Source: Eledone cirrhosa
Lineage: Eukaryota
Assembly: GCA_964016885.1 (NCBI GenBank)
Contig: OZ024750.1
Coordinates: 37,076,001 to 37,140,000, forward strand
Direction: 5' to 3'
Length of the DNA stretch: 64,000 nucleotides
Shown here: positions 4,643-52,516 of the stretch, piece after piece
Position numbering within the stretch: the stretch's first letter is position 1
Layout of the letters: every line of letters begins with the position of its first letter
Notes under the pieces: model-generated
Told to the model about the DNA's origin: nothing
What the model saw: only the letters and a program-made list of their open reading frames with translations
Databases searched by the model: none
Translations under genes and position numbers: made by a program

Positions 4643-7600
4643 GTAAGTATTACTTGATTCTGCCAGGACATGTGTCCATTAGATCAGTGGTCGCCAACCA
4701 GTGGCCCGAGAGAACATTTTTTGGACATTATTTGCAATTTTTATGTTTTATTAATAATAAAACAAAAATAATATTCGGTTAAAATATATTTTATAACTCT
4801 CCTGAAAAATGTTTCTCCTCAGTAAAGAACTAACTTCCATGAAAGAATGTTACACATATTTATTATCTATTGACAATATGACACAATGCTTCAGTATAGT
4901 TTAATAAAATAGAAGTTCTCTGATCATTATTCTACAAATGTATTTATCATTTTTTTAACATTCATATTAGTGGTCTGCATGATTTAAAATTATGAATTTA
5001 GGGGTCTGTGAGGTCCAAAAGGTTGGCGACCACTGCATTAGATAGTATCAACAATGGGAATTTGATTATTTTATGTTCAGTCCTTGATAGGAATTTTTTT
5101 TTGTTTTAATGTATATGTAGATGTTCACACACACACACACTGTGTCAAGGTGGGAAACAACTTAACTAAGATAAAAACTTTGTCAAAAAACACCACCAAA
5201 CATATTTTTGCCATTGATAACCTAGTATCAGCATTGGAAAGACCGATGGAAACATTGTTTCCTTGGTCTGATTTGATGAGTTCCACCCTCACTTGGTAAG
5301 CAAATAAGGTCTGGGATCTTGTGAATCATTTCTATTACTTGATTACAATTAATTGTGGAAAAAGTGCAGGGCGATCAGAATTAATGGAAGTTACGGAGTA
5401 GGCAGACCCAGAAAAACCTGGGATGATTTGATAAATTCCGACCTTGCACACTTACACCTCTCTAAGACGATATCACTGGACCGAGATCTTTGGCGCTATG
5501 CAGTAATTAATACAGAAGACCCGCCTTGCCTAAGTACAAAGCGAAACCTACAGTCAGTAGGCACCTCTTAATCAAATATACACCCCCATCCCACCAACAC
5601 CACCCCTTTCTCTGTAATGTTATGTTGGTACCACAACATCCAGTCCTAAATAAATGACGTTGTGTAGGTGTCACAACAAAAAAACACAGTCCACGCTGTA
5701 ATGTGGCCTTGTAGGTAAAAAGGCTCCCAGTCCACTCTGTAAACGTGGTTGGTCTTAGGAAGGGCATCCAGCCGTAGAAAACCCGCCAGACAGTCCTAAA
5801 CGAGTGAGACAACCAATCTTGCCTCAAGTGGGACAATTCTCGTCTAAACCCATGCAAGCGTGGAAGATAGACATTAAATGTTGATGATGATGATGATGAT
5901 GATGAAGAGAAGATGATGATGATGATGATGAGAAGACTGACCAATATAAAGGATATGACTTATCCCACCCATGACCCTCCCCACTATCGCTCCTTTCTAG
6001 CTAATCTCACCATCACTTAACACCACTCTTAGCCCCATTCAATCCATGATAACAGCCACACTCTTAAATCCTAACACGCCATTCATAACTCCTTAGTAGC
6101 TGTTATTGTCATTACAATACCAACCCCACACTTTTGGAGATCACCCACTCCCTTTGTGTATGTCAATAACAGTTTTGGACAACATTAGAATAATACTTAT
6201 TCTATTGGTGGTGTGTCTTTATATCACTTAGTCAGGTCTTTTTCCTGGCTAAGCAGTGCCCATGACACTTTTCAGGGCCTTCAAGATTGATGAGGAATGG
6301 GGTGCGTATGAGGAAAGTATTCATAAACCAGAGACATGATATAGACCAGAGATTCTAAAACTGTTTGTGCACCCCCCCCCATAGCCACATAATACACTTA
6401 GCACCCCCACCCCTATATCCAGAGAGACCTGGTCTCCTACCAGTTGGTTTTTGCCCTTAAAATCTGTCCAGCCATTCTTTCCACATGCCTTAAGTCTTTG
6501 TTAGAAATTTTCTTTTATATCAACTGCAGACCTTATTTGCTTAAAGAGTTGGATGGAGCTCCTCGAATTGGACTGGGGAAACAATGTTTCCATTGGTCTT
6601 TCCGATTGCTAATACTATCTACTGGTCACAAATCCAAGCAGAAGGAGCAACGTGAAATAAAGTGTCTTGCTCAAGGACATAGCGCACTGCCCTGTCTGGG
6701 AATCAAAATCACAACCTCATGATTGCGAATCCAATTTTCTAACCACTCAGCCACACGCCTTCACAAACATATATTCTCTAAAATACAAACATATATTCTC
6801 TAAAATACAAAGATATATATTCTCTAAAATACAAACATATATTCTCTAAAATACAAACATATATTCTCTAAAATACAAACATATATTCTCTAAAATACAA
6901 ACATATATTCTCTAAAATACAAACATATATTCTCTAAAATACAAACATATATTCTCCAAAATACAAACATATATTCTCTAAAATACAAACATATATTCTC
7001 TAAAATACAAACATATATTCTCTAAAATACAAACATATATTCTCTAAAATACAAACATATATTCTCTAAAATACAAACATATATTCTCTAAAATACAAAC
7101 ATATATTCTCTAAAATACAAACATATATTCTCTAAAATACAAACATATATTCTCCAAAATACAAACATATTCTCCAAAATACAAACATATATTCTCTAAA
7201 ATACAAACATATATTCTCTAAAATACAAACATATATTCTCTAAAATACAAACATATATTCTCTAAAATACAAACATATATATTCTCTAAAATACAAACAT
7301 ATATTCTCTAAAATACAAACATATATTCTAAATGCTGCATAATTTACTGGAATATATATATTTAATTTACTTCCAAATTCCAGTACAGTCTTGTTTTTGA
7401 TGCTGGTTCCAGCCATACTGCATTATATATCTATACTTGGGAAGGTTCCAAAGTAAATGGCACAGCAGTTGTTCAACAAAAGGCTTCCTTTAAAACAAAA
7501 GGTATATATTTTGCAATTTTTTCATTTAAATAGATTAATGATATCCAGTATATCCAGTTTGTATACTGCCTGTGTGTGTGTTGTAAGAGAAGATTAACCC

Positions 7601-15500: not shown

Positions 15501-18500
15501 TATCCCGTTGAGGTTAACTTTGCCTTTCATCCTTATTGGGTCAATAAAATAAAATACCAGTAATGTACTGGGTAATTTGCTGGCCTTGTGCCAAAAGTAG
15601 AAACAATTATATTATAAATTTCCATGTGTCTAACACACGTGGACATGCCCACAAAGTAAGAAAACAGCACAGTTCCCATGACTTTTGGAAACATTTTTTC
15701 ACGCTCAGAGTTGCTGAAGCATGGAACAAACTACCTGCATCAGTTGTTAGCTGTCGAGACACTGCATCCTTTAAGGCCTCCATGCTTCCCGAGATCCGCC
15801 AACAGAACAGCTAACACATACACACATGTACTTCCCTGACATTTGTGTATTATTCTATGTACTATATTGACGAGTTGTAGTGCACCTGAGCACTTTACAC
15901 AATAATTTCATTATTATTATTATTATTATTATTATAATAGAGCTGTATATGTCTTCATATATATCTCTATTATGAATCAGACTATGTTAGTGTTACAAGG
16001 GTGGACTGAACAGTTCATAGGCTGACTATGAAGGGGTGATGCTAACACTGTGAAATTTTAGATGCATTAATTTCAACTCTTCTTATTAATAACTGTATTG
16101 TTTCTTTATAGGGACTATGTTGAAAAATAAACCTCATTTAGTCATTCCATGAGAGTATTTTGGTCAGCCTATGAACTTTTGGCTAAACAGTTCATAGGCT
16201 GACTATGACGGAGTGATGTTAGAGCTGTGAAATCTTGCATACATTAGTTTCAGCTCTTCTTATTAATAACTGCATTGTTTCTATGTTGAAAAATATACTT
16301 CATTTGGTCATTCCATGAGAGTATCTTGGTCAGAGTATGAACTTTTCAGCCGATGCTCATACTCTCTAATTACTGTTACATATATCATTTCAAAATGTCT
16401 CTTTGTATTCAATCATTGTTTTCCACTGTTCAAAGTTCAAATCCTCTAAGGTCCAACTCTGTTAAATTGATAAAATAAGTCCCTGTAAAACATGAGAACC
16501 AATTTACTTGACTAATTGTGTGTATATCTGTTGACATCTCATCACTATCATGACATTCATTTCATCATCATCATCATTTCATTTTACGTCCGCTTTTTCC
16601 CTGCTTGCAAGAGTGGGACGGGAACTGATTCTGGCTTGATTTCTACAGCTGGATGCCCTTCCTAACACCAACCTCATTTCCAGTGAGTGCTGGGTGCTTT
16701 TTTGCTGTGGCACCTCAACGACCACTTTGCAGTGGAATGATAGGGACCTCAGTCCCTATCATCTCATTTCTACAGCTGAGTAAACTGGAGCAATGTGAAA
16801 TAAAGTGTCTTGCTCAAGGAAACAACACATCACCCAGTCTGAGAATTGAACTCACAACCTTTTGATTGCAAGGCCAATGCTCTAACCACTAAGCCATGTG
16901 CCTGACATTATGTTTACTCAAGAAAGTGTTTAACTATAAGTTTGAAAGCAGAGGCAACAGAGAGGAGCTTCAGCTAGATCCTCACTACAAAATCTCCATA
17001 TGGTGTAAATACACAAGTCTCCGATATCCGAATGGTTAAATGGCAATAGAAGGGTACTCAGGAATCATGACCTGAATGCTGCCCGGCCTCCTTAGAGTGT
17101 AAGATGTTAAGGTTTGAAACACTTGCTTGAGGGGGGAGGGGTTCTTCTCTGACGACCTTCTGCTGTTCAACTCTCCTGAGAGTTTCTCACTTTAATAATT
17201 ATATTTCTTTATTTTATATATTTTAGCTTGCTGATTCGTATACCTTTATTGGTACTGGTGACTTTGAAATGTGTCAAAATACTACTGAAGGGTTGTTTAA
17301 CTTCACTGAGTGTCCTTATGGAAATAATTGCTCCTTTAACAAGGTTTATCAACCCTCAATCAAAGATAAAGATTTTTATGTAAGTTATTATGGTTTCTAT
17401 TTAAGCCTTTAGCATTTAAACCAGCCATATCCGGCCAGGATTCTCTCACCTCTTTCTGTTCAAACTGGCTGTAACTGGCCACTCTTACTGATGTTAAGGT
17501 ATTGTTCTTAAAATAAATAATATCAAGATCTTATAGGTTCAATATTATGTGAGATAAAGTGTTTACTGTGAAAATACAATAATATATATATAGAGTAATG
17601 TAAATGTTATGTGAGATATGTGAGGTAAAGACTTTACTGTGAAAATACAATAGTATATATAGAGTAATGTAAATGTTATGTGAGATATTATGTGAGGTAA
17701 AGCCTTTACTGTGAAAATACAATAATATATATAGAGTAATGTAAATGTTTTGAGAGATATTATGTGAGATAAAGCCTTTACTGTGAAAATACAATAGTAT
17801 ATATAGAGTAATGTAAATGTTATATAATAATAATAATGAAATTATTGTGTAAAGTGCTCAGGTGCACTACAACTCGTCAATATAGTACATAGAATAATAC
17901 ACAAATGTCAGGGAAGTACATGTTTGTATGTGTTAGCTGTAGTGTTGGCGGATCTCGGGTGAGATATTATGTGAGGTAAAGCCTTTACTGTGAAAATACA
18001 ATAGTATATATAGAGTAATGTAAATGGTAAAGGGTTAAATTTCATTTATGTTGTTGGCTTATGGAATAGATTTACTTGTATTTTATTGTAATATATATAG
18101 CTATACAGACTATAGAAAAGATGGTGGAATGGCTCAATTTGGGTTTAACTTATTAAAGAATCAAGGATATATATATATATATATTTTTATCATCATCATT
18201 ATCATCATTTTACGTCTACTTTTCCTGTCTTGCAAGGGTGGAATGGGTCCTATATTTAGCACAACACCTCTCCATTTGTCACAGTCCTTCATCATCTTTG
18301 TAAGCTTCAGCGATCTGAGGTCAGCTCTTACTACCTCTGCCCATGTTTTTCGTGGTCTTCCTTTACTGCGTCTTCCTTCTACCAGGATTTCTTGGCACTT
18401 CTTCAGCCAGTGGTCATCTTCCATGAGCATCACATGTCCATACCAATGCAGTCTTCTCTCTCGCACACTACAGTTTATCCCTCTTATACACAGTTTCACT

Positions 18501-19293: not shown

Positions 19294-21847
19294 TATTGTT
19301 ATATTTGGGGAGGGTCATATTTGCGTAATATTGCCAGGCGTCTAACAATGGCATACCACCCTTGTATGGGCTCCGCAAAGACCACAAGACAGTCGACGAC
19401 CCGACAACAGGACCACCAACAAGACCCGTATGCGGAGCTAATATAGCTAGCAACTACAGGATCTCCTACTTCCTCTCAATGGTTATACGCCCCATAATCA
19501 AGATGTCCCCAGATGTATGTGAAAGTACAGAGGACCTCCTCAGCAGAATCAGTGAGTGCAACAAAAACAGGAGCCTATCCAACTGCATAATAGGCAGCAT
19601 GGATGTGGTGTCACTGTACCCATCCATTAACATTGATTTTGCTGTGAAAAGATGTGTAGAGATGATCATTGAGAGTGAGGTGGAGTTCTGCGACGTCGAC
19701 ACAGACGAACTGGGCCTCCTACTTAGACTTACCTACGACACTGACTACCTAGACAGCCATGACCTTAGATGTTTCTGCCCTAGTAGACCTATAAGAGGTA
19801 GACCCCCCACCATAACCTCAATGGCTAAAAAGACTCCCATAGGAAGGTGGATTGGGTGGACCAAAGCTATACGGACCCCCCAAAACACTGATCAGGTAAG
19901 AAAAATGGTCGCACATGCAATAGGGGCTAGTATCAAAACTACCCTAAAGGGCCACATATTTAAGTTCAATGAGAAAATCTACACCCAAAATGAGGGAGCA
20001 GCCATCGGCGTCAGCATAGCTGGTGATGTTGCCAACCTTTTCATGGTATGGTGGGAAAGGAGACTTAAAGATCTCCTTAATGAAAGCTCCATAGACCTCA
20101 TCATGTACTCTCGTTATGTAGACGATATCAATATAGTTATAAGAACACCCCCACTAGAGAGCACTAACAAGTTTGATTTAGAACGTAGCACGATGGAAAG
20201 CATCCAGCAGATAGCTAATTCCATACACCAGAGTATAACTGTAACTATAGACTTCCCTTCCAAACACCCTAACAATAGACTACCTGTATTAGACACAGAA
20301 CTCTGGATTAACACTATAGACGAGAGAGCCCAAATTCTCCACTCACACTATGCTAAACCCATGGCCTCCAAATACCTGATACTCAAAAACTCAGCAATGT
20401 CCAGTAGTGCTAAGTTTAATATTCTGATCGCAGATTTGGTACGAGTGATGAAGAATGTGTCCAGCATGTGCGACCCAACAGAAATGGAAGGACACATCCA
20501 ACACTTCATCAACCGCATGCAGTTCTCTGGCTACAACCAAAGAGACAGAGTCAGAGTATACGAAGGAGCCATGGAAAAGTATAAGACCCTCATAGAACTG
20601 GACATGAAAGGAATTTGCCCACTATACAGGAGCAAATCATGGAATAGCTTAGATAGGGCTAGACATAAGATAGGGAAGGCCACATCATGGTACGACAACC
20701 AGAGATATCAGAGTGTCATGTTTGTGGACGCCACCCCTGGAGGGAAATTAGCTAACCAGTGTAGAAAGGCCCTGAGAAAGACCCACTTAAAAATAAAGGT
20801 GGTAGAAAAGCCAGGAACCACCATAAAATCCCTGATCAGCAAAACCTACCCTTTTAAGAAAACCCACTGTACCAATAGGAAATGTATCATATGTAAGGTG
20901 AACCCCCGGATAAACTGTAAAACTAGAAACGTAGTCTATAGCATAAGATGTACAGAGGGTACTTGCAGAAACATGACAACAACATACATAGGTGAGACAG
21001 CTCGTAGCATGGGTGAAAGGATAGACCAACACTGGGGGGAACTAAAAGGACGAAAAAACGGGTCAGTACTATACGAACATGCTAGACAACAACATGACGG
21101 TAACATAGACAACATAGAAATTAGAATAATATCTAAACATAGGAATGACCCAGCAGATAGGCAAATCAGAGAGGCCAGTGAAATAGAAATTAGAAGACCA
21201 AAGCTAAACAGAGAGAATGAGTGGAACAACAACAACACCCAAACAAACAACACTGACCTAAGAGAAGTATAAATAAGTAAATAAAATAAAATAAAATAAG
21301 ATAAATAAATACATACACAAGCGCATAAACACACACTAGTCACCCAGCAGACACAACACTATACACACTAGTCACACATCACACATAACACTATACGCAA
21401 ACGCATGCGCAAAGAAGACAAAATAAAATAAGATAAACAAACAAGCAAATAAATAAATAAATATATAGACAGACTGAACAAAAAAAAATGGCGTAGACAT
21501 ACAACACAGGAGGAACAATGAATATAACACCACTGACGATGTTGCAGATGTGCAACGAAAGATTTATGTAAATTATGTAAACTAAATTATATATATGTGT
21601 TCGTGTCTATATTGTATCTATTATTTTTGACCGCCGGTCAGTCAATGGCAACATTAAGGACCGAGTAAGTTAGATCGCAGATATATATATATAAAAGACA
21701 GCGAGAAGCGAAAACCAACCAAACAGTGAGTGTGTTCTGTTATTAATTCTGGCAATATTACGCAAATATGACCCTCCCCAAATATAACAATATCTGTTTC
21801 GACACACGATTTCATATAAAAAACCTCGCAAAACTAATTCATCGCCG

Positions 21848-21916
<69 letters not shown>

Positions 21917-37805: not shown

Positions 37806-38458
37806 TAATATATATTTTAGAAATTTAGAAATTAATATATAATTTAATTTAAATGTAGATAACCTATAAATTTAATTTAATTAAATTTCTAATACATATG
37901 AGATAAAAAATATTGTGTAATCATAAATAGTGAAAAACTTTAAAATATTATTAACATAATTAATATATACTTTGTAAATTAATTTATAGATTAATTTTAG
38001 TTTATTTAACCTTTTATTAAAATTCCTTTATAGATGAAATATAACAAAATATCGTGTAATCAATAACAGAGAAATATTTTTTAATATTATAAACCTAATT
38101 AATGTACAATTTAGAAACTTATTTATAAATTAATTTTAATTTAGTTAACCTATAATTTTAATTTAATTAGCTTAAAATTAAAATTCCAATACAGATGGAT
38201 TGCAGAATATCATGTAATCATAAACTGAGATAAATTTTTAAATATATACCTAATTAATATATTCTTTACAATTAAAAAAAAAAATATATATATATATTTT
38301 GGATTTAATGCTCTGAAATAGCGATATATATGTGAAGACAAACATAGAATATTCGAAAATATTCTGTATGTTTATAATAAACATTTTGAAGAACCAATCG
38401 CTATAGAATAGAATACGTCACGTATTACAATTTGAGATTCTCGATAAAAACAAGGGAA

Positions 38459-38501
38459 GTAATCTACGCGTTTCATTCTTATTAGAAATCATCAGGACTA
38501 C
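38459..38501 (-). ncRNA. Minimal type-I hammerhead ribozyme
   Basis: GTAGTC-CTGATGA-T-TTCT-AATA-AGAA-T-GAAA-CGCG-TA-GATTAC. Confidence 0.85.
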
Positions 38502-38770
38502 ATATCCAATGCTTTTATCGAGAACGACACAGCTAGAGACTTATAGAATACTTAGCTGTGTACAGGAACTGGTTTGAAAGAGCGGTAGCCGGTCCGGCAG
38601 AAATTAGAATTTGGATTTAATGCTCTGAAATAGCGATATATATGTGAAGACAAACATAGAATATTCGAAAATATTCTGTATGTTTATAATAAACATTTTG
38701 AAGACCCAATCGCTATAGAATAGAATACGTCACGTATTACAATTTGAGATTCTCGATAAAAGCAAGGGAA

Positions 38771-38813
38771 GTAATCTACGCGTTTCATTCTTATTAGAAA
38801 TCATCAGGACTAC
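38771..38813 (-). ncRNA. Minimal type-I hammerhead ribozyme
   Basis: Identical to the previous unit, 312 bp away. Confidence 0.85.
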
Positions 38814-39082
38814 ATATCCAATGCTTTTATCGAGAACGACACAGCTAGAGACTTATAGAATACTTAGCTGTGTACAGGAACTGGTTTGAAAGAGCGGTAG
38901 CCGGTCCGGCAGAAATTAGAATTTGGATTTAATGCTCTGAAATAGCGATATATATGTGAAGACAAACATAGAATATTCGAAAATATTCTGTATGTTTATA
39001 ATAAACATTTTGAAGACCCAATCGCTATAGAATAGAATACGTCACGTATTACAATTTGAGATTCTCGATAAAAGCAAGGGAA

Positions 39083-39125
39083 GTAATCTACGCGTTTCAT
39101 TCTTATTAGAAATCAGCAGGACTAC
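39083..39125 (-). ncRNA. Hammerhead with core mutation (CTGCTGA)
   Basis: The + strand reads tcagcag instead of tcatcag. Confidence 0.7.
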
Positions 39126-39593
39126 ATATCCAATGCTTTTATCGAGAACGACACAGCTAGAGACTTATAGAATACTTAGCTGTGTACAGGAACTGGTTTG
39201 AAAGAGCGGTAGCCGGTCCGGCAGAAATTAGAATTTGGATTTAATGCTCTGAAATAGCGATATATATGTGAAGACAAACATAGAATATTCGAAAATATTC
39301 TGTATGTTTATAATAAACATTTTGAAGACCCAATCGCTATATTTACATAAAATTGTAATACGTGACGTATTCTATTCTATAGCGATTGGGTCTTCAAAAT
39401 GTTTATTATAAACATACAGAATATTTTCGAATATTCTATGTTTGTCTTCACATATATATCGCTATTTCAGAGCATTAAATCCAAATTCTAATTTCTGCCG
39501 GACCGGCTACCGCTCTTCCAAACCAGTTCCTGTACACAGCTAAGTATTCTATAAGTCTCTAGCTGTGTCGTTCTCGATAAAAGCATTGGATAT

Positions 39594-39636
39594 GTAGTCC
39601 TGATGATTTCTAATAAGAATGAAACGCGTAGATTAC
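39594..39636 (+). ncRNA. Minimal type-I hammerhead ribozyme (inverted arm)
   Basis: gtagtcCTGATGAtttctaataagaatGAAAcgcgTAgattac. Confidence 0.85.
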
Positions 39637-39754
39637 TTCCCTTGCTTTTATCGAGAATCTCAAATTGTAATACGTGACGTATTCTATTCTATAGCGATTG
39701 GGTCTTCAAAATGTTTATTATAAACATACAGAATATTTTCGAATATTCTATGTT

Positions 39755-39789
<35 letters not shown>

Positions 39790-45813: not shown

Positions 45814-45872
45814 TCCGTCCAGACCCATGCAAGCGTGGAACACGGACGTTAATCGTTGATGATGATATATGT

Positions 45873-46169: not shown

Positions 46170-46182
46170 GTATATATATATA

Positions 46183-46232
46183 AGTATGTATGTATACGTA
46201 CATACATATATGTATACAGACGTACAGTAGCA

Positions 46233-46280
<48 letters not shown>

Positions 46281-46781
46281 TATACACATATGCATACAGG
46301 TACACATACATATATGCACGCATCAGTTTAGCCGGCGTTTATTATAACGCCGGCCGCTTTGTTCGTTTGTTTGTCAACAAAGCGAACAGCCTGAATTTAT
46401 GCCATACGGTGTTAAGGCAACCACGTCACCTTTTTTTCAACTTATCGTTTTCGGTATGCCTGACCGATTTAACTCACTCAATATGCAAATTAGGCTGCTC
46501 AGCCGTTAATTTTCATAAGGAAAGTATATACTTTCGAACGTTCAACTATCTGGCAGATGGGTAAACGGTGCTGATGATAGCTAACAAGCTTGAAACTAGT
46601 ACATCGTTCCTGTGTCAGTGTTGAACAAAAAGGTGACGTGGTTGCCTTAACACCGTATGGCATAAATTCAGGCTGTTCGCTTTGTTGACAAACAAACGAA
46701 CAAAGCGGCCGGCGTTATAATAAACGCCGGCTAAACTGATGCGTGCATATATGTATGTGTACCTGTATGCATATGTGTATA

Positions 46782-46829
<48 letters not shown>

Positions 46830-46940
46830 TGCTACTGTACGTCTGTATACATATATGTATGTACGTATACATACATACTTACATTTAAGTAAGTGCCATA
46901 CTAAGAGTGAGAAATGAAATTTCGTTTTCATTTTTTTCAA
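46183..46940 (+). mobile_element. Non-coding hammerhead element with inverted 5' arm of about 250 bp
   Basis: 46183-46434 is the reverse complement of about 46627-46880. Hammerhead in the spacer. Homologous to 59527-60019. Confidence 0.85.
46564..46608 (+). ncRNA. Minimal type-I hammerhead ribozyme
   Basis: AACGGTG-CTGATGA-T-AGCT-AACA-AGCT-T-GAAA-CTAG-TA-CATCGTT. Confidence 0.85.
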
Positions 46941-46942
46941 CT

Positions 46943-47087
<145 letters not shown>

Positions 47088-47519: not shown

Positions 47520-47584
47520 GTATATTCCGTCCAAACCCATGCAAGCGTGGAAGACGGACGTTAATCGTTGATGATGATATATGT

Positions 47585-48876: not shown

Positions 48877-48977
48877 CCGTCCAAACCCATGCAAGCGTGG
48901 AACACGGACGTTAATCGTTGATAATGATATATGTACACATATATATATAAATATATATATGTATGTATATATATATA

Positions 48978-49181: not shown

Positions 49182-49242
49182 ATATATATATGTATATATA
49201 CAATATTAAATAAATGGAAAACTATATTTATAAAACCATATT

Positions 49243-49308
49243 TATTTCATTATATATATTTCGGGGATATCATATTAACAATATGTTATGCCTTCATCAG
49301 ACAAAATA
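49243..49308 (-). ncRNA. Type-I hammerhead in PLE 3' pLTR
   Basis: TATTTTGT-CTGATGA-stem II (CATATT/AATATG core)-GAAA-TATATA-TA-ATGAAATA. Confidence 0.75.
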
Positions 49309-49664
49309 CAATATAAACAGTTTTATAGATAAATATATTCGACATACCGTAATAAACATCGACTTCATTTGAAGAGGTTTACGCTAGCAGTGAAAATTTT
49401 ATACAGAGAGAAAGAAAAAGAAAAAGAAAGAAAGACAAAACGAAGAAAAGGAAGAAAAAGAAGAAAAAGAAAAAGAAGAAATGCAGAAATGCATGGAACA
49501 AAATAGAGAGATGGAAAATAGATAAAGCGAAGAGCTTCATGTAAAGAAACAGAAAGATATATATATATATAGAGAGAGAGAGGAAATAGAGATAGATACA
49601 TATATATATATATAGAAAATTAGGTAGTGGGAGGTCATTTTGAGTAAGTGTATCAATGATACAT

Positions 49665-49695
<31 letters not shown>

Positions 49696-50869
49696 GCTCA
49701 AGTATTAATGTAAGGGAGATATATAGAGAGAGAAAAAAAATTTAAAAATAGCCAGACATATTCGAGGCGTAGAAAACCCTATGTTTTAATGTATTAGTAT
49801 TTATAAAACTTACACTACATTGTAAATATCAGTATTCCTGAATGAAACAAGTATCCACAATGTGTGAAAATTCATTATCTTATGTTTAGTTTTATAAAAT
49901 TAATATGTTTATGTGACAGCTACAAACATCCATGTGAATCCAACTGATTCACTCTGCAAACTCTAAGTGACCGGAAAACATTCTCAATGTGGTATAAAAA
50001 TTTGAGTGTATTATTATTCCTGCGATTACTCTACAAGATCATCTATCAAGCAGAAATAGAGAGCAGATTTCAATATACTAATAAAAATATATATTATACT
50101 ATAAACAAAACTAAAAATAAAAAGATAACAATAATAATAATAATAATAAGTAAAAATATAGAATAGAAAACTAAAAAAAATAAAAAATATAAAAAAATAT
50201 TATTATTATTATTATTAAATATTAAAAAAATAATATAAAACTAAAAAAATATTACGAAAGAATATTACATAATAAAAATATTGCATACTAAAAATACTAC
50301 GTATTAAAAAATATTACGTATTAAAAATTTACATATTAAAGATATTAAAAATATTAAAAATGAAAATAAAAATAAAAATAAAAATAAAAAATGAAAATAA
50401 AAAATAAAAATATTATAGAATACTACAATACTAAAAAAAATATTATAGAATACTACAATACTAAAAAAATAAAAATAAAAATAAAATAAAAATAAAAATA
50501 AACCACAAAGAACAACCCTTCAAAGTTAATTGACAATATATTGCCAAGTTCATTACAAGACAAAGCCAAAAATTATCTATCAAATCACATCTAGCAAAGA
50601 ACATTTCAAAAAGATTATGATGTCCAATTATGTCTACATATGTTCTTATATTTAATATAGAAGTTTATCTAGTGTAAGGTTAATTCAAAAAATTTGGAGC
50701 ATCGGCTTTTAGGGTAGCTTAATTTTTCATGAGGAATGTTTAGATGAAAATAAAAATAAATAAAATAAAAATAAACAATAAAAAAAGAGTAAAAAGAGGG
50801 AATCAAAGATTTAGGAATCAAAAGATTTATCGGCTAGTTCTCATATAAATATAAATCAAACTAAATATA

Positions 50870-52516
50870 CTACATTTTAAATTTAAATTTATATTTAAAC
50901 GTTGAGTTTAATCTATGTTTGCAACAACTGAATAAATTTGTCCGTAGGTTAAGGGAATTTTTAGATTTTAGTATAAAGAATATCTCCTCTGCGCAGAGGT
51001 CACATGTCTCAGAGGATGAATTAAAAGGAATCCCTCTTGAGACTATATTCCAAGCCGTCGAATATCTAACGTTATCTAGCTTAAGTTGCCAGAGTACGCC
51101 TGATAGTGCCGTTGAAGATTTTTTACTTGGATCCGTGAAAGAATTCTTGTGGTTATTATAGCGAAGTTTAAATTCCGTCGATGTGGAACCGACGTAGTTA
51201 AAAGAATTAGAGTCAGTATTAACATTACAATTGTATACTATATTTTTAACTAAGCAGTTGTTATTTAACGGACATTTAGATCTATCTCTACAGTTACATT
51301 TGTTAACTTGTATATTATTTATGCTATTATCAGTAGGTTTTAAGTTCCTATTATTTATTCTATTAATATTTTGTGCTAAATTTTTGGTGGATGAGTAGGT
51401 TAATTTAATTGTATGCCTATTGAAGATTGAGTGATACCTATGTGTTCTAGGGAAGCGATTATCAAGAGCTTTGAAAAATAATTTAGCGATGTGGGTTTTA
51501 ATGTTTAGTGAGAAAGGGGGGGCAAACCAAATTATGTTCCTAGTTCTATTTCTTTTTTGTCCTTTGGAATTATTGTAATGCTTTCTATTATAGTTGTTAA
51601 AGTTGTTGCCGTAATTAAAAAAGTTGTTACTTTGTTTAGTTTGTCTATCATTATCTATGTACACAATCTTATCAGTATACCCTGCCCTAGCTAGTGCATC
51701 ATTATAGTACTGGGCCTTTTCGTCAAAAATCTTTCTATTCGACGAGATCCTAGAGATACGTTTTTGGACTGAGTTTACTATAGTGTTTTTGACAGATCTG
51801 GGGTGGTTAGAGTTAAAGTTGACATAGTTTAAGTTTTCATTCAACTTGTGAAAAGGATAGTGGAGACATGTGTTGAGATTTAATGTTATATCTAGGAAAT
51901 TGACTATTCTATGGTTGTTCTCAATTTCTATTTTAAGGTTAAAGTAATTAAAAAATTTTGTAATTTGTTTACATTTTCTATTTAGTTCAGGGTTATTATT
52001 ATTAATAAGTAAAAGCATGTCATCCCTATATAAACCTCCGGTAGTACCAGGTATTTTCCTATGTAGCGAATTGATTAAAAATAAGCCCACAAGGTCAGTT
52101 ACCTGAGCTGAGTCGGAAGATCCCATAGTTATGTCAAAATTGCTATCTCTATCTGCTCTGGTCCATAATTTGTCATTAAATTCTATCAAAGTTTTCCTAG
52201 CCGATAATATAATATGCATTTCTTTGCTAGTTAGGTCCGTATGTTTGAATGCGTAATTTAGTGCCTTATTTAGTAGACTAAGGGTAATAGAAGAATAATA
52301 GTTAGCTATATCAAGTTGAATAAACCTATTATTATTGTTATATTTAATTTGCCTAAACCACTCAACAACCTCTCCAGTTCCCTTCCACAAGCTCAGGTTA
52401 GATACACAATCCAAGTTCTTAATTTGCTGTATCACCCTGTCAAGAATGTTTTTGCTTAATTTGCCCAGGTCCGATTTTGAAGGTGCGATCAATCTAACTG
52501 GCAGGTCATTTTCAAA
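50870..52516 (-). CDS. PLE RT + GIY-YIG endonuclease (5'-truncated, uninterrupted)
   Basis: VRLIAPSKSDLG, LDIANYYSSI, FDITMGS, GLYRDD, NFLDI, WFAPPF, CNCR..CPLNNNC, IVYNC...YVG, CDLC..E. The first residues of the ORF-track entry (start 52543) are junction-derived. Confidence 0.9.
   Translation of the reverse strand, partial: FENDLPVRLIAPSKSDLGKLSKNILDRVIQQIKNLDCVSNLSLWKGTGEVVEWFRQIKYNNNNRFIQLDIANYYSSITLSLLNKALNYAFKHTDLTSKEMHIILSARKTLIEFNDKLWTRADRDSNFDITMGSSDSAQVTDLVGLFLINSLHRKIPGTTGGLYRDDMLLLINNNNPELNRKCKQITKFFNYFNLKIEIENNHRIVNFLDITLNLNTCLHYPFHKLNENLNYVNFNSNHPRSVKNTIVNSVQKRISRISSNRKIFDEKAQYYNDALARAGYTDKIVYIDNDRQTKQSNNFFNYGNNFNNYNRKHYNNSKGQKRNRTRNIIWFAPPFSLNIKTHIAKLFFKALDNRFPRTHRYHSIFNRHTIKLTYSSTKNLAQNINRINNRNLKPTDNSINNIQVNKCNCRDRSKCPLNNNCLVKNIVYNCNVNTDSNSFNYVGSTSTEFKLRYNNHKNSFTDPSKKSSTALSGVLWQLKLDNVRYSTAWNIVSRGIPFNSSSETCDLCAEEIFFILKSKNSLNLRTNLFSCCKHRLNSTFKYKFKFKM

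Follow-up and report, generated by a model that had tools for sequence, protein, structure and literature searches.

Two hammerhead insertions of a putative non-LTR retrozyme family in Eledone cirrhosa, likely copied by a Penelope-like enzyme

Introduction

What kind of element are the two diverged hammerhead sequences near 46.2–46.9 kb and 59.5–60.0 kb of a 64,000-nucleotide stretch of Eledone cirrhosa DNA (contig OZ024750.1; the whole stretch is called the window hereafter), how were they placed there, and does the octamer motif ahead of each of them serve transcription? Both the transcription of animal retrozymes and the enzyme that inserts them are, in the literature consulted, matters of proposal. 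An initial annotation of the window had taken the two loci, here named A and B, for diverged relatives under selection on RNA structure, and had suggested that the octamer might be an internal promoter element. By their sequence, each of the two loci holds one unit of a non-coding hammerhead repeat of high copy number, a non-LTR retrozyme, with A and B belonging to different subfamilies.

Architecture of the Two Insertions

All motifs named in the initial annotation (the hammerhead cores, stems I and II, the loop AACA, ACTAGT and ATGCAAAT) were found at both loci, and the homology of A and B indeed extends beyond the core, with the whole unit alignable at 62–63% identity (~62% between the monomers). 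The start assigned to locus A, position 46183, does lie in repeat sequence, but it falls inside a 261-nt, 99% identical inverted copy of 46627–46887 that had gone unmentioned. Insertion A thus consists of two arms. The 5'-truncated inverted arm (46175..46441, minus strand) covers unit positions 175–442 without a ribozyme, and its outer end, the fixed end E2, adjoins (TA)n; the forward arm (46431..46945, plus strand) comprises one 500-nt unit (46446–46945) preceded by 15 nt of the foregoing unit, and its outer end, the fixed end E1, likewise adjoins (TA)n. Insertion B (59527..60019, plus strand) has a single arm, with one 466-nt unit (59554–60019), 27 nt of the preceding unit and an E1 end before (TA)n. 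The unit lengths are marked by direct repeats, 15 nt at a spacing of 500 in A and 27 nt at a spacing of 466 in B. Between the two fixed 3' ends lies a stretch termed the tail, of 58 nt in A (46888..46945, with E2 at 46887 and E1 at 46945) and of 67 nt in B (59953..60019, with E2 at 59947–59952 and E1 at 60019). The 5' junction of B joins one copy of a 38-nt fragment that is present inside TA tracts of the window in at least six copies (45831–45868, 47543–47580, 48893–48930, 55808–55845, 59491–59528 and 61168–61205).

Both units are laid out in the same order on the plus strand. The octamer ATGCAAAT starts at 46483 in A and at 59589 in B, 88 and 100 nt ahead of the core, within the block ATGCAAATTAG (46483..46493 and 59589..59599), which matches an upstream element of host U6, U6atac and MRP genes and forms the 5' arm of a predicted hairpin (46482–46517 in A, 59586–59624 in B). 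A TATA-like box follows, in A at 46525..46530 inside a further predicted hairpin (46520–46535), in B in a weak form at 59630..59636. The type I hammerhead of A occupies 46560..46610, with its core at 46571–46601 and the predicted cut after 46601; it has a palindromic stem III and a U-U pair of bases at the foot of stem II. That of B lies at 59678..59728 (core 59689–59719, predicted cut after 59719). Downstream, a predicted long-range helix P2 pairs 46655–46663 with 46893–46901 in A (46655..46901), compensated relative to its counterpart in B, where 59777–59784 pairs with 59959–59966 (59777..59966).

A High-Copy Repeat Family

The pattern shared by the two cores, which by construction excludes G at the cut-site base, has 19,187 exact matches in the 3.0-Gb genome of the species, as compared to 0 for the reversed control, so that the hammerhead cores of A and B cannot be ascribed to chance; 19,055 matches were obtained for the octamer located 70–100 nt upstream of the core. 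Among the matches are lone units as well as short tandems, and some arrays comprise about 30 units; the unit lengths are 466–500 nt. A set of 132 cores in 61 sequences sorts into the subfamilies A1, A2, B1, B2 and B3, A2 being told by its 3' arm TAATATGCAT. As the window copies are in addition 99% identical to copies elsewhere in the genome, A and B represent two successful subfamilies. The sequence features of non-LTR retrozymes are all present, namely a non-coding tandem repeat of a few hundred nucleotides, a type I hammerhead in each unit and many dispersed copies, the window copies themselves being monomers.

An Rfam scan of the window at the gathering thresholds reported neither hammerhead. 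Twenty single, unrelated hammerhead-like hits were obtained in the genome, and in the 13 loci examined none had a stem I of at least three pairs at the hit. A search with altered stem I gave 42 genomic hits, of which 38 non-A/B loci were read; a perfect octamer lay upstream in one (locus L162), and kinship with A/B was not demonstrable for the other 37. About 37 single-copy, mutually diverged CTGATGA...GAAACTAGT motifs in a recurring context (loci L153–L190) are probably relics of an old hammerhead family. A metagenome scan returned 19 hits, none resembling A or B and none with a perfect octamer, and the viral contigs returned no hit.

Hammerhead Stems and Fold of the Monomer

At both loci the core CUGANGA...GAAA...UH is surrounded by three helices with helix I open, as in type I hammerheads. 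The stems are present as annotated, stem I as AACGGTG/CATCGTT in A and AATATTG/CAATATT in B, stem II as AGCT/AGCT and GTTGT/ACAAC, with pairing kept in each case; the details need amendment in that stem II of A has 4 bp on a U-U mismatch, and that the conserved part of stem I has 6 bp followed by a GGUA/UCC internal loop. Similarly, the sequence ACTAGT annotated as stem III exists, but its helix is only 1–2 bp long with a palindromic loop, a minimal form that is reported to cut as a dimer (PMC4209133, PMC7229834).

In an alignment of 15 copies, 6 of 11 stem pairs are changed on both sides (three of six in stem I, three of five in stem II), and 93.6% of the stem I and II cells are paired, versus 35–45% in slid controls. 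Five of the six double changes fall on the single branch between A and B, and the sixth distinguishes young B subfamilies (GTTGT/ACAAC in B1, GATGT/ACATC in B2/B3), so that few independent events are involved; the number of doubly changed pairs did not exceed a shuffle control (56/500). Compensatory changes alone are ordinary for a hammerhead family. The claim of selection on RNA structure is nevertheless supported, and it reaches beyond the ribozyme: besides the doubly changed stem pairs, long-range helices are kept in A, in B and in an old third lineage, termed D.

Circular folds were much more stable than shuffled sequences in four of four monomers (z −9.4 to −14.6, 30 shuffles each), with 66–71% of the residues predicted to be paired. 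Folded separately, the A and B monomers give one predicted topology despite ~38% sequence change; the common order is an extended stem I, a hairpin, the long-range helix, GTGAG/CTCAC across the unit junction, the octamer hairpin and a hairpin containing the TATA-like box. The long-range helix reads GTATGGC/GCCATAC in A and GTATGAC/GTCATAC in B. RNAalifold applied to a MAFFT alignment misaligned the tail region, and the long-range helices were compared from the separate folds instead.

The Octamer Block and the Small-RNA Promoters of the Host

The expectation that the octamer run is more conserved than its flanks did not hold at a significant level for A and B alone (P was 0.58 when one run of 11 was considered, 0.19 with two runs and 0.17 with the best window), and the small-RNA promoters of the host were therefore examined. 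Nine U1/U2 promoters were compared. A distal TTACCTCCCTT-like element occurs in eight of them, and the proximal part has TATA near −30, TCAGT at −56 to −58 and AATTA at −89 to −91; none of the nine has an octamer at a shared position, which rules out a vertebrate-style octamer within the distal element. By contrast to this U1/U2 layout, the position −76 to −78 is taken by ATGCAAAT, or by a version differing in one letter, with (T/G)AG after it in three U6 clusters, in the MRP gene and in the best U6atac gene, all of which have their TATA at −30. No promoter was present at that place in the remaining U6 (14) and U6atac (5) hits, which had been fetched by rank and look like retrocopies.

A U6-type matrix built from these five promoters (three U6 clusters, U6atac, MRP) ranked each left-out site first among 598 positions. 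It scored A at 15.3 bits and B at 19.3 bits, within the range of the true sites in the leave-one-out procedure (14.4–20.2); of 667,998 background positions, 3 reached the score of A and 2 that of B, and among 23 perfect octamers of the background the same scores were reached by 3 and 2. In B, positions 59586–59599 are identical over 14 nt to the −77 element of one host U6 gene. It should be borne in mind that A and B share the motif by descent, so that the match to the host element counts as one observation.

Other parts of a host promoter do not fit. The RNase P gene, which served as a held-out test of the matrix, lacks the element and has the U1/U2 layout. In all five host genes the TATA box follows 46–48 nt past the element; the best TATA match lies at 42 nt in A and at 41 nt in B (41–42 nt past the octamer start for the weak box of B), i.e. 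5–6 nt closer, and according to PMC1761439 the PSE–TATA spacing of insects varies by just 1–2 bp between species. The best scores for a distal element near −265 are 5.9 and 6.5, which is at chance level, and so are the composite scores of A and B for the U1/U2-type layout (AATTA at −90, TCAGT at −57, TATA at −30 and distal element). Runs of T4–T7 occur inside both units, so that Pol III would be expected to stop before the next ribozyme. If the TATA-like box sets the start, transcription would begin near 46555 in A and near 59662 in B, 47 and 58 nt before the predicted cut sites. The idea of an internal promoter thus stands in part: its motif matches an element of the host U6, U6atac and MRP genes and is kept in lineage D, whereas the TATA spacing, the distal element, the T runs and the RNase P gene do not conform to it, and the motif doubles as a hairpin arm. 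On balance, the element of A and B might well work as a promoter, with the scales tipped very slightly the other way.

The main alternative is that the octamer block is merely an RNA hairpin, either structural or a protein-binding site on the RNA, that the repeat is transcribed by read-through from outside, and that the likeness to U6 is a relic or a coincidence. The octamer block forms one arm of a hairpin and TAATTTTCATA the other, with predicted pair probabilities of 0.92–0.98 in A and B (z −2.6 to −4.3), and A>G changes within this hairpin (see below) suggest a double strand at the RNA level. In three of the loci read, a position that is invariant in the host genes shows an A>G variant by which the hairpin is retained through G-U pairing; the deviation of the TATA box by half a helical turn, the missing distal element, the T runs and the non-significant conservation between A and B point in the same direction. 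Against a purely structural role, none of the 12 pairs of the octamer helix is doubly changed, while other helices do change, and it is the 5' arm that is fixed and the 3' arm that varies. In the A-like contigs of run X1, no variant above 5% was found in 46481–46510 or 46514–46535, whereas positions 46511 and 46513 of the partner arm vary at ~54%. The octamer arm seems to be under a double constraint, its sequence being fixed and its partner arm free to change.

Lineage D, which consists of two decayed copies in L162 that are 45–58% identical to A and B upstream, bears on the same point. CTCAC recurs there at the same −10 offset, one of the two copies has both arms of the long-range helix, and TATGCAAAT is the longest invariant run (P 0.0007, a value that is too favourable as the lineage was found because of its octamer), with a different partner arm. 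Copy D1 does not fold the hairpin and D2 folds it weakly in a shifted register, and yet the distance from the octamer to ATATA stays at 40–43 nt in A, B and D2. In the array L192, finally, a template with a destroyed octamer was still inserted, which suggests that the octamer sequence is dispensable for the copying enzyme. Taken together, we regard a hairpin without promoter function as a serious possibility, though we would not expect it to prevail.

Two further observations concern the host promoters and the other repeats of the window. The grammar of the host snRNA promoters (L141–L143, L213, L219, L239, L071–L091), with a shared distal element near −260 and an octamer-like −77 element in U6, U6atac and MRP genes, can be used for the design of U6 expression cassettes in Eledone cirrhosa; in L063:260-420, a palindrome is centred on two inverted ATGCAAATGAGGC sites, close to the MRP promoter element, and no hammerhead follows downstream. 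A third hammerhead repeat of the window (38298–39760) has a 312-nt unit, an ACGCGT palindrome and head-to-head arms, and no octamer. The 3' strand of its ribozyme matches the distal element of the host snRNA genes (16.6 bits; 6 of 668,398 background positions), a match that is partly forced by the ribozyme loop, and AATT, CCAGT and TATA follow at the U1/U2 spacing of the host; the composite score of 23.6 was reached by 0 of 640,098 background positions, the proximal motifs alone not being significant.

A>G Variants and the RNA Template

The variants of individual insertions carry information on the template from which they were copied. In B insertions, A>G accounts for 10 of 19 variants present in all copies of an insertion, versus 7 of 97 variants present in some copies only (Fisher 1e-5), and all 10 shared A>G sites fall in predicted stems, as compared to 91 of 149 A residues (P 0.007). 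Strand asymmetry alone was not significant (12 A>G versus 4 T>C, P 0.077) when insertions of A were included, with L134 (an older subfamily) and L138 (a duplicate) left out of the A>G count. In the array L192, three A>G changes turn ATGCAAAT into GTGCGGAT; they are identical in 18 of 18 listed copies, of which one arm holds 7 and the other 11. The simplest reading of this pattern suggests a single A-to-I-edited circular RNA that was copied repeatedly in both directions; the shared variants could instead stem from a donor array that already carried the changes. Among the contigs of four runs, whose kind is not stated, a 496-nt contig closes on itself with a period of 466, which fits a tandem array as well as a circle; these contigs had no useful ends or joints.

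Copying by a Penelope-type enzyme could also start from a long, linear, uncut multimeric transcript, the hammerhead being mostly silent. The minimal stem III and the U-U at the base of stem II in A speak for this reading, unprocessed RNA was the main substrate of an anole Penelope-like element whose ribozyme mutants were inserted normally (PMC11167929), and eight of nine Xenopus dimers remained uncleaved in vitro according to a recent preprint (10.64898/2026.07.22.740005). Identical clusters of A>G in all 18 listed copies of L192, on both arms, would on the other hand be hard to obtain by independent editing of each unit, and selection on the hammerhead stems has continued. A linear template is hence unlikely in our estimate, though it keeps some weight, and a circular RNA is the template that we prefer.

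Insertion Ends and the Penelope-Type Footprint

The boundaries of the arms were mapped in 55 loci. Besides the two window loci, these were the matches that came first in the list for one chromosome, and all had been chosen for an intact core; this is not a random sample, and two of the loci (L137 and L138) are duplicates. Among 99 mapped arms, 3 are cut by the edge of the locus, and of the 96 uncut ones 90 have their end at either of two positions in the unit (464–466 or 394–400 in B coordinates, 493–500 or 431–442 in A coordinates). Of these fixed ends, 85 of 90 run into (TA)n. Adjacent opposite arms are arranged head to head in 38 of 38 pairs, and where both ends could be classified, E1 is combined with E2 in 29 of 30 pairs (P 6e-8; 28 of 29 without the duplicate L138). 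The 5' ends are evenly spread in the B arms (KS P 0.57, with 6 mapping artefacts left out) and do not pile up at the predicted start or at the cut site (1 of 65 near the cut, with 1.5 expected), and 40 of the 66 B arms extend over more than one unit. Insertion A conforms exactly, its left arm stopping at the equivalent of 46887 and its right arm at 46945, with a tail of 58 nt.

Two fixed 3' ends, a tail on one side, variable 5' truncation and a head-to-head inverted copy are, as far as the mapped ends tell, the tail and inverted-copy pattern of Penelope-like elements (PLEs). For these elements, a tail and an inverted, 5'-truncated copy have been described (PMC8557442), and in vitro work has found two internal start sites of reverse transcription and extension on both target strands (PMC11167929). 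The arms of the A/B family pass from unit to unit without an ORF, so that the RT and GIY-YIG reading frame of an autonomous PLE is missing. The family was likely inserted by a Penelope-like enzyme, and it would behave as a non-autonomous Penelope passenger without being a PLE itself.

Several PLE-like sequences were noted in this context. A 5'-truncated PLE at 19329–21848 of the window (plus strand) encodes a 647-aa RT, for which RVT_1 was a weak match (E 1e-4) and a GIY-YIG-like end was recognised by eye, and has a minimal hammerhead near 21535, an inverted end at ~19295–19335, a 57-nt tail and (TA)n on both sides, which makes it a candidate for the type of mobiliser; PDB and Atlas gave no name for its protein. 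A second PLE-like ORF (49200–52693, minus strand, and 53650–55270) of 607 aa has no Pfam hit, its motifs being read by eye, and possesses a long 3' region with a hammerhead-like motif near 49300 that is apparently repeated ~4.45 kb further on. In L170:2140-6820, a head-to-head pair of PLE ORFs shares 54–73% identity with the window PLE, and a minimal hammerhead lies near 7070. The window further contains an 805-aa LINE ORF with endonuclease and RT domains (56290–58707, minus strand) and a weak tRNA match of 30.3 bits (16835–16898, minus strand), probably the head of a tRNA-derived SINE.

It could be argued that A and B are nothing but the 5'-truncated ends (pseudo-LTRs) of autonomous PLEs, as the pattern of tail and target is that of the window PLE at 19329–21848, and Xenopus retrozymes derive from pseudo-LTRs (preprint 10.64898/2026.07.22.740005). 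This is very improbable: the arms go from unit to unit without an ORF, A and B have no similarity at E<0.05 to the 3' regions of the three PLE copies compared, and these PLEs carry different, minimal hammerheads. Barely credible is an ordinary satellite in which the hammerhead is a passenger, amplified at the DNA level through unequal exchange, extrachromosomal circles or fold-back within TA tracts. Expansion at the DNA level was proposed in the same preprint, and arrays of ~30 units and (TA)n tracts that favour fold-back would agree with it. This reading is largely refuted by the mapped arms, whose 3' ends are fixed at two sites and whose 5' ends are random, whose polarity is strictly head to head and whose pairs combine E1 with E2; it is also opposed by the strand specificity of the conserved fold and the A>G excess among shared variants.

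Proposed Model

With good confidence, we thus take A and B for members of a non-LTR retrozyme family whose copying into (TA)n was likely the work of a Penelope-like enzyme, with a probably circular RNA as its template, ATGCAAATTAG being possibly an internal copy of the U6-type upstream element of the host. A tandem copy would be transcribed past one unit, and two hammerheads, predicted to act as a dimer via the ACUAGU palindrome, would cut out a monomer, which by analogy to PMC7229834 is likely ligated into a circle. The monomer is predicted to fold into one conserved, multi-branched structure, in line with the compensatory changes observed. Following the enzymology of PMC11167929, the enzyme may nick both strands of the (TA)n target and use two internal sites 58–72 nt apart, with one cDNA starting from each. 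The cDNAs would run upstream through the ribozyme for any number of units, and the two truncated 5' ends would then be joined head to head, as the observed pattern of ends suggests. A would be a two-armed and B a one-armed product; with one ribozyme each, both are probably dead ends.

A bolder version, which we consider speculative and rather improbable as a whole, would see a self-promoting retro-circle, in which a U6-type element with shortened TATA spacing uses the same 11 nt as DNA promoter and as RNA helix, and a ligated, ADAR-edited circle is read by two Penelope RTs simultaneously from two fixed sites into mirror-image arrays; the second family of the window would instead have taken the U1/U2 layout, with the distal element inside a ribozyme stem. 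For experiments, the family offers exact coordinates for two putative RT start sites, for the (TA)n target and for a conserved fold whose helices are compensated, and the candidate promoter element can be separated from its hairpin role by paired mutations.

Comparison with Known Systems

The promoter of newt satellite 2 has an octamer-plus-PSE layout. This repeat (Coats, Zhang and Epstein 1994), cited as having an internal snRNA-type Pol II promoter (PMC2220036), is the nearest promoter precedent, the common features being a hammerhead tandem repeat and an internal motif, like those of snRNA genes, shortly upstream of the cut site. Unlike the newt case, the motif of A and B resembles the U6, U6atac and MRP element of the host and not its U1/U2 promoter, its TATA-like spacing departs from that of the host genes, and it doubles as a predicted hairpin arm. 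If the element works, a hammerhead repeat far from amphibians would draw on small-RNA promoter parts of its host, as newt satellite 2 is cited to do, although here the parts would be those of the U6 type.

The closest relatives in kind are the metazoan non-LTR retrozymes of coral, mussel and axolotl (Cervera and de la Pena 2020, PMC7229834), which likewise have a type I hammerhead in each low-GC, non-coding tandem unit, thousands of copies and a highly self-paired predicted monomer. The one-pair helix III with a palindromic tetraloop of axolotl HHR_Amex1 recurs in B, and the U-U at the base of helix II of HHR_Amex2 recurs in A. With 466–500 nt or more, the A/B units lie at or above the 150–450 bp range given there. 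Circles were shown in that work and PLEs merely proposed as the mobiliser, whereas the circle of the A/B family is a predicted one; fixed ends, two-armed insertions or a promoter, as treated in the present analysis, are not given in the accessible text of PMC7229834.

With the PLEs (PMC8557442, PMC11167929), the A/B family shares two fixed 3' ends, a tail on one end, a head-to-head inverted copy, partial tandems, microsatellite targets and a type I hammerhead. It differs from them in having no ORF, a tail of 58–72 nt instead of 30–40 nt, a hammerhead with the canonical loop 1/loop 2 layout instead of the minimal form, and no homologous autonomous partner among the three PLE copies compared. 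In their 2026 preprint, Li, Clavereau and Pollet propose that PLEs gave rise to animal retrozymes as non-autonomous derivatives, with monomers as inactive offspring (10.64898/2026.07.22.740005), which agrees with our reading of A and B. Their proposal is based on co-occurrence and pseudo-LTR homology in vertebrates; the present link is one of insertion-end geometry, no pseudo-LTR homology having been found.

In the literature searched, from which subscription papers were mostly absent, no description was found of a cephalopod retrozyme, of two-ended tail geometry in retrozymes or of a U6-type element in one, and the supplements of PMC7229834 and of the preprint may list such families. By every sequence feature tested, the A/B family is a known kind of element, a non-LTR retrozyme, to which a testable mechanism is now added.
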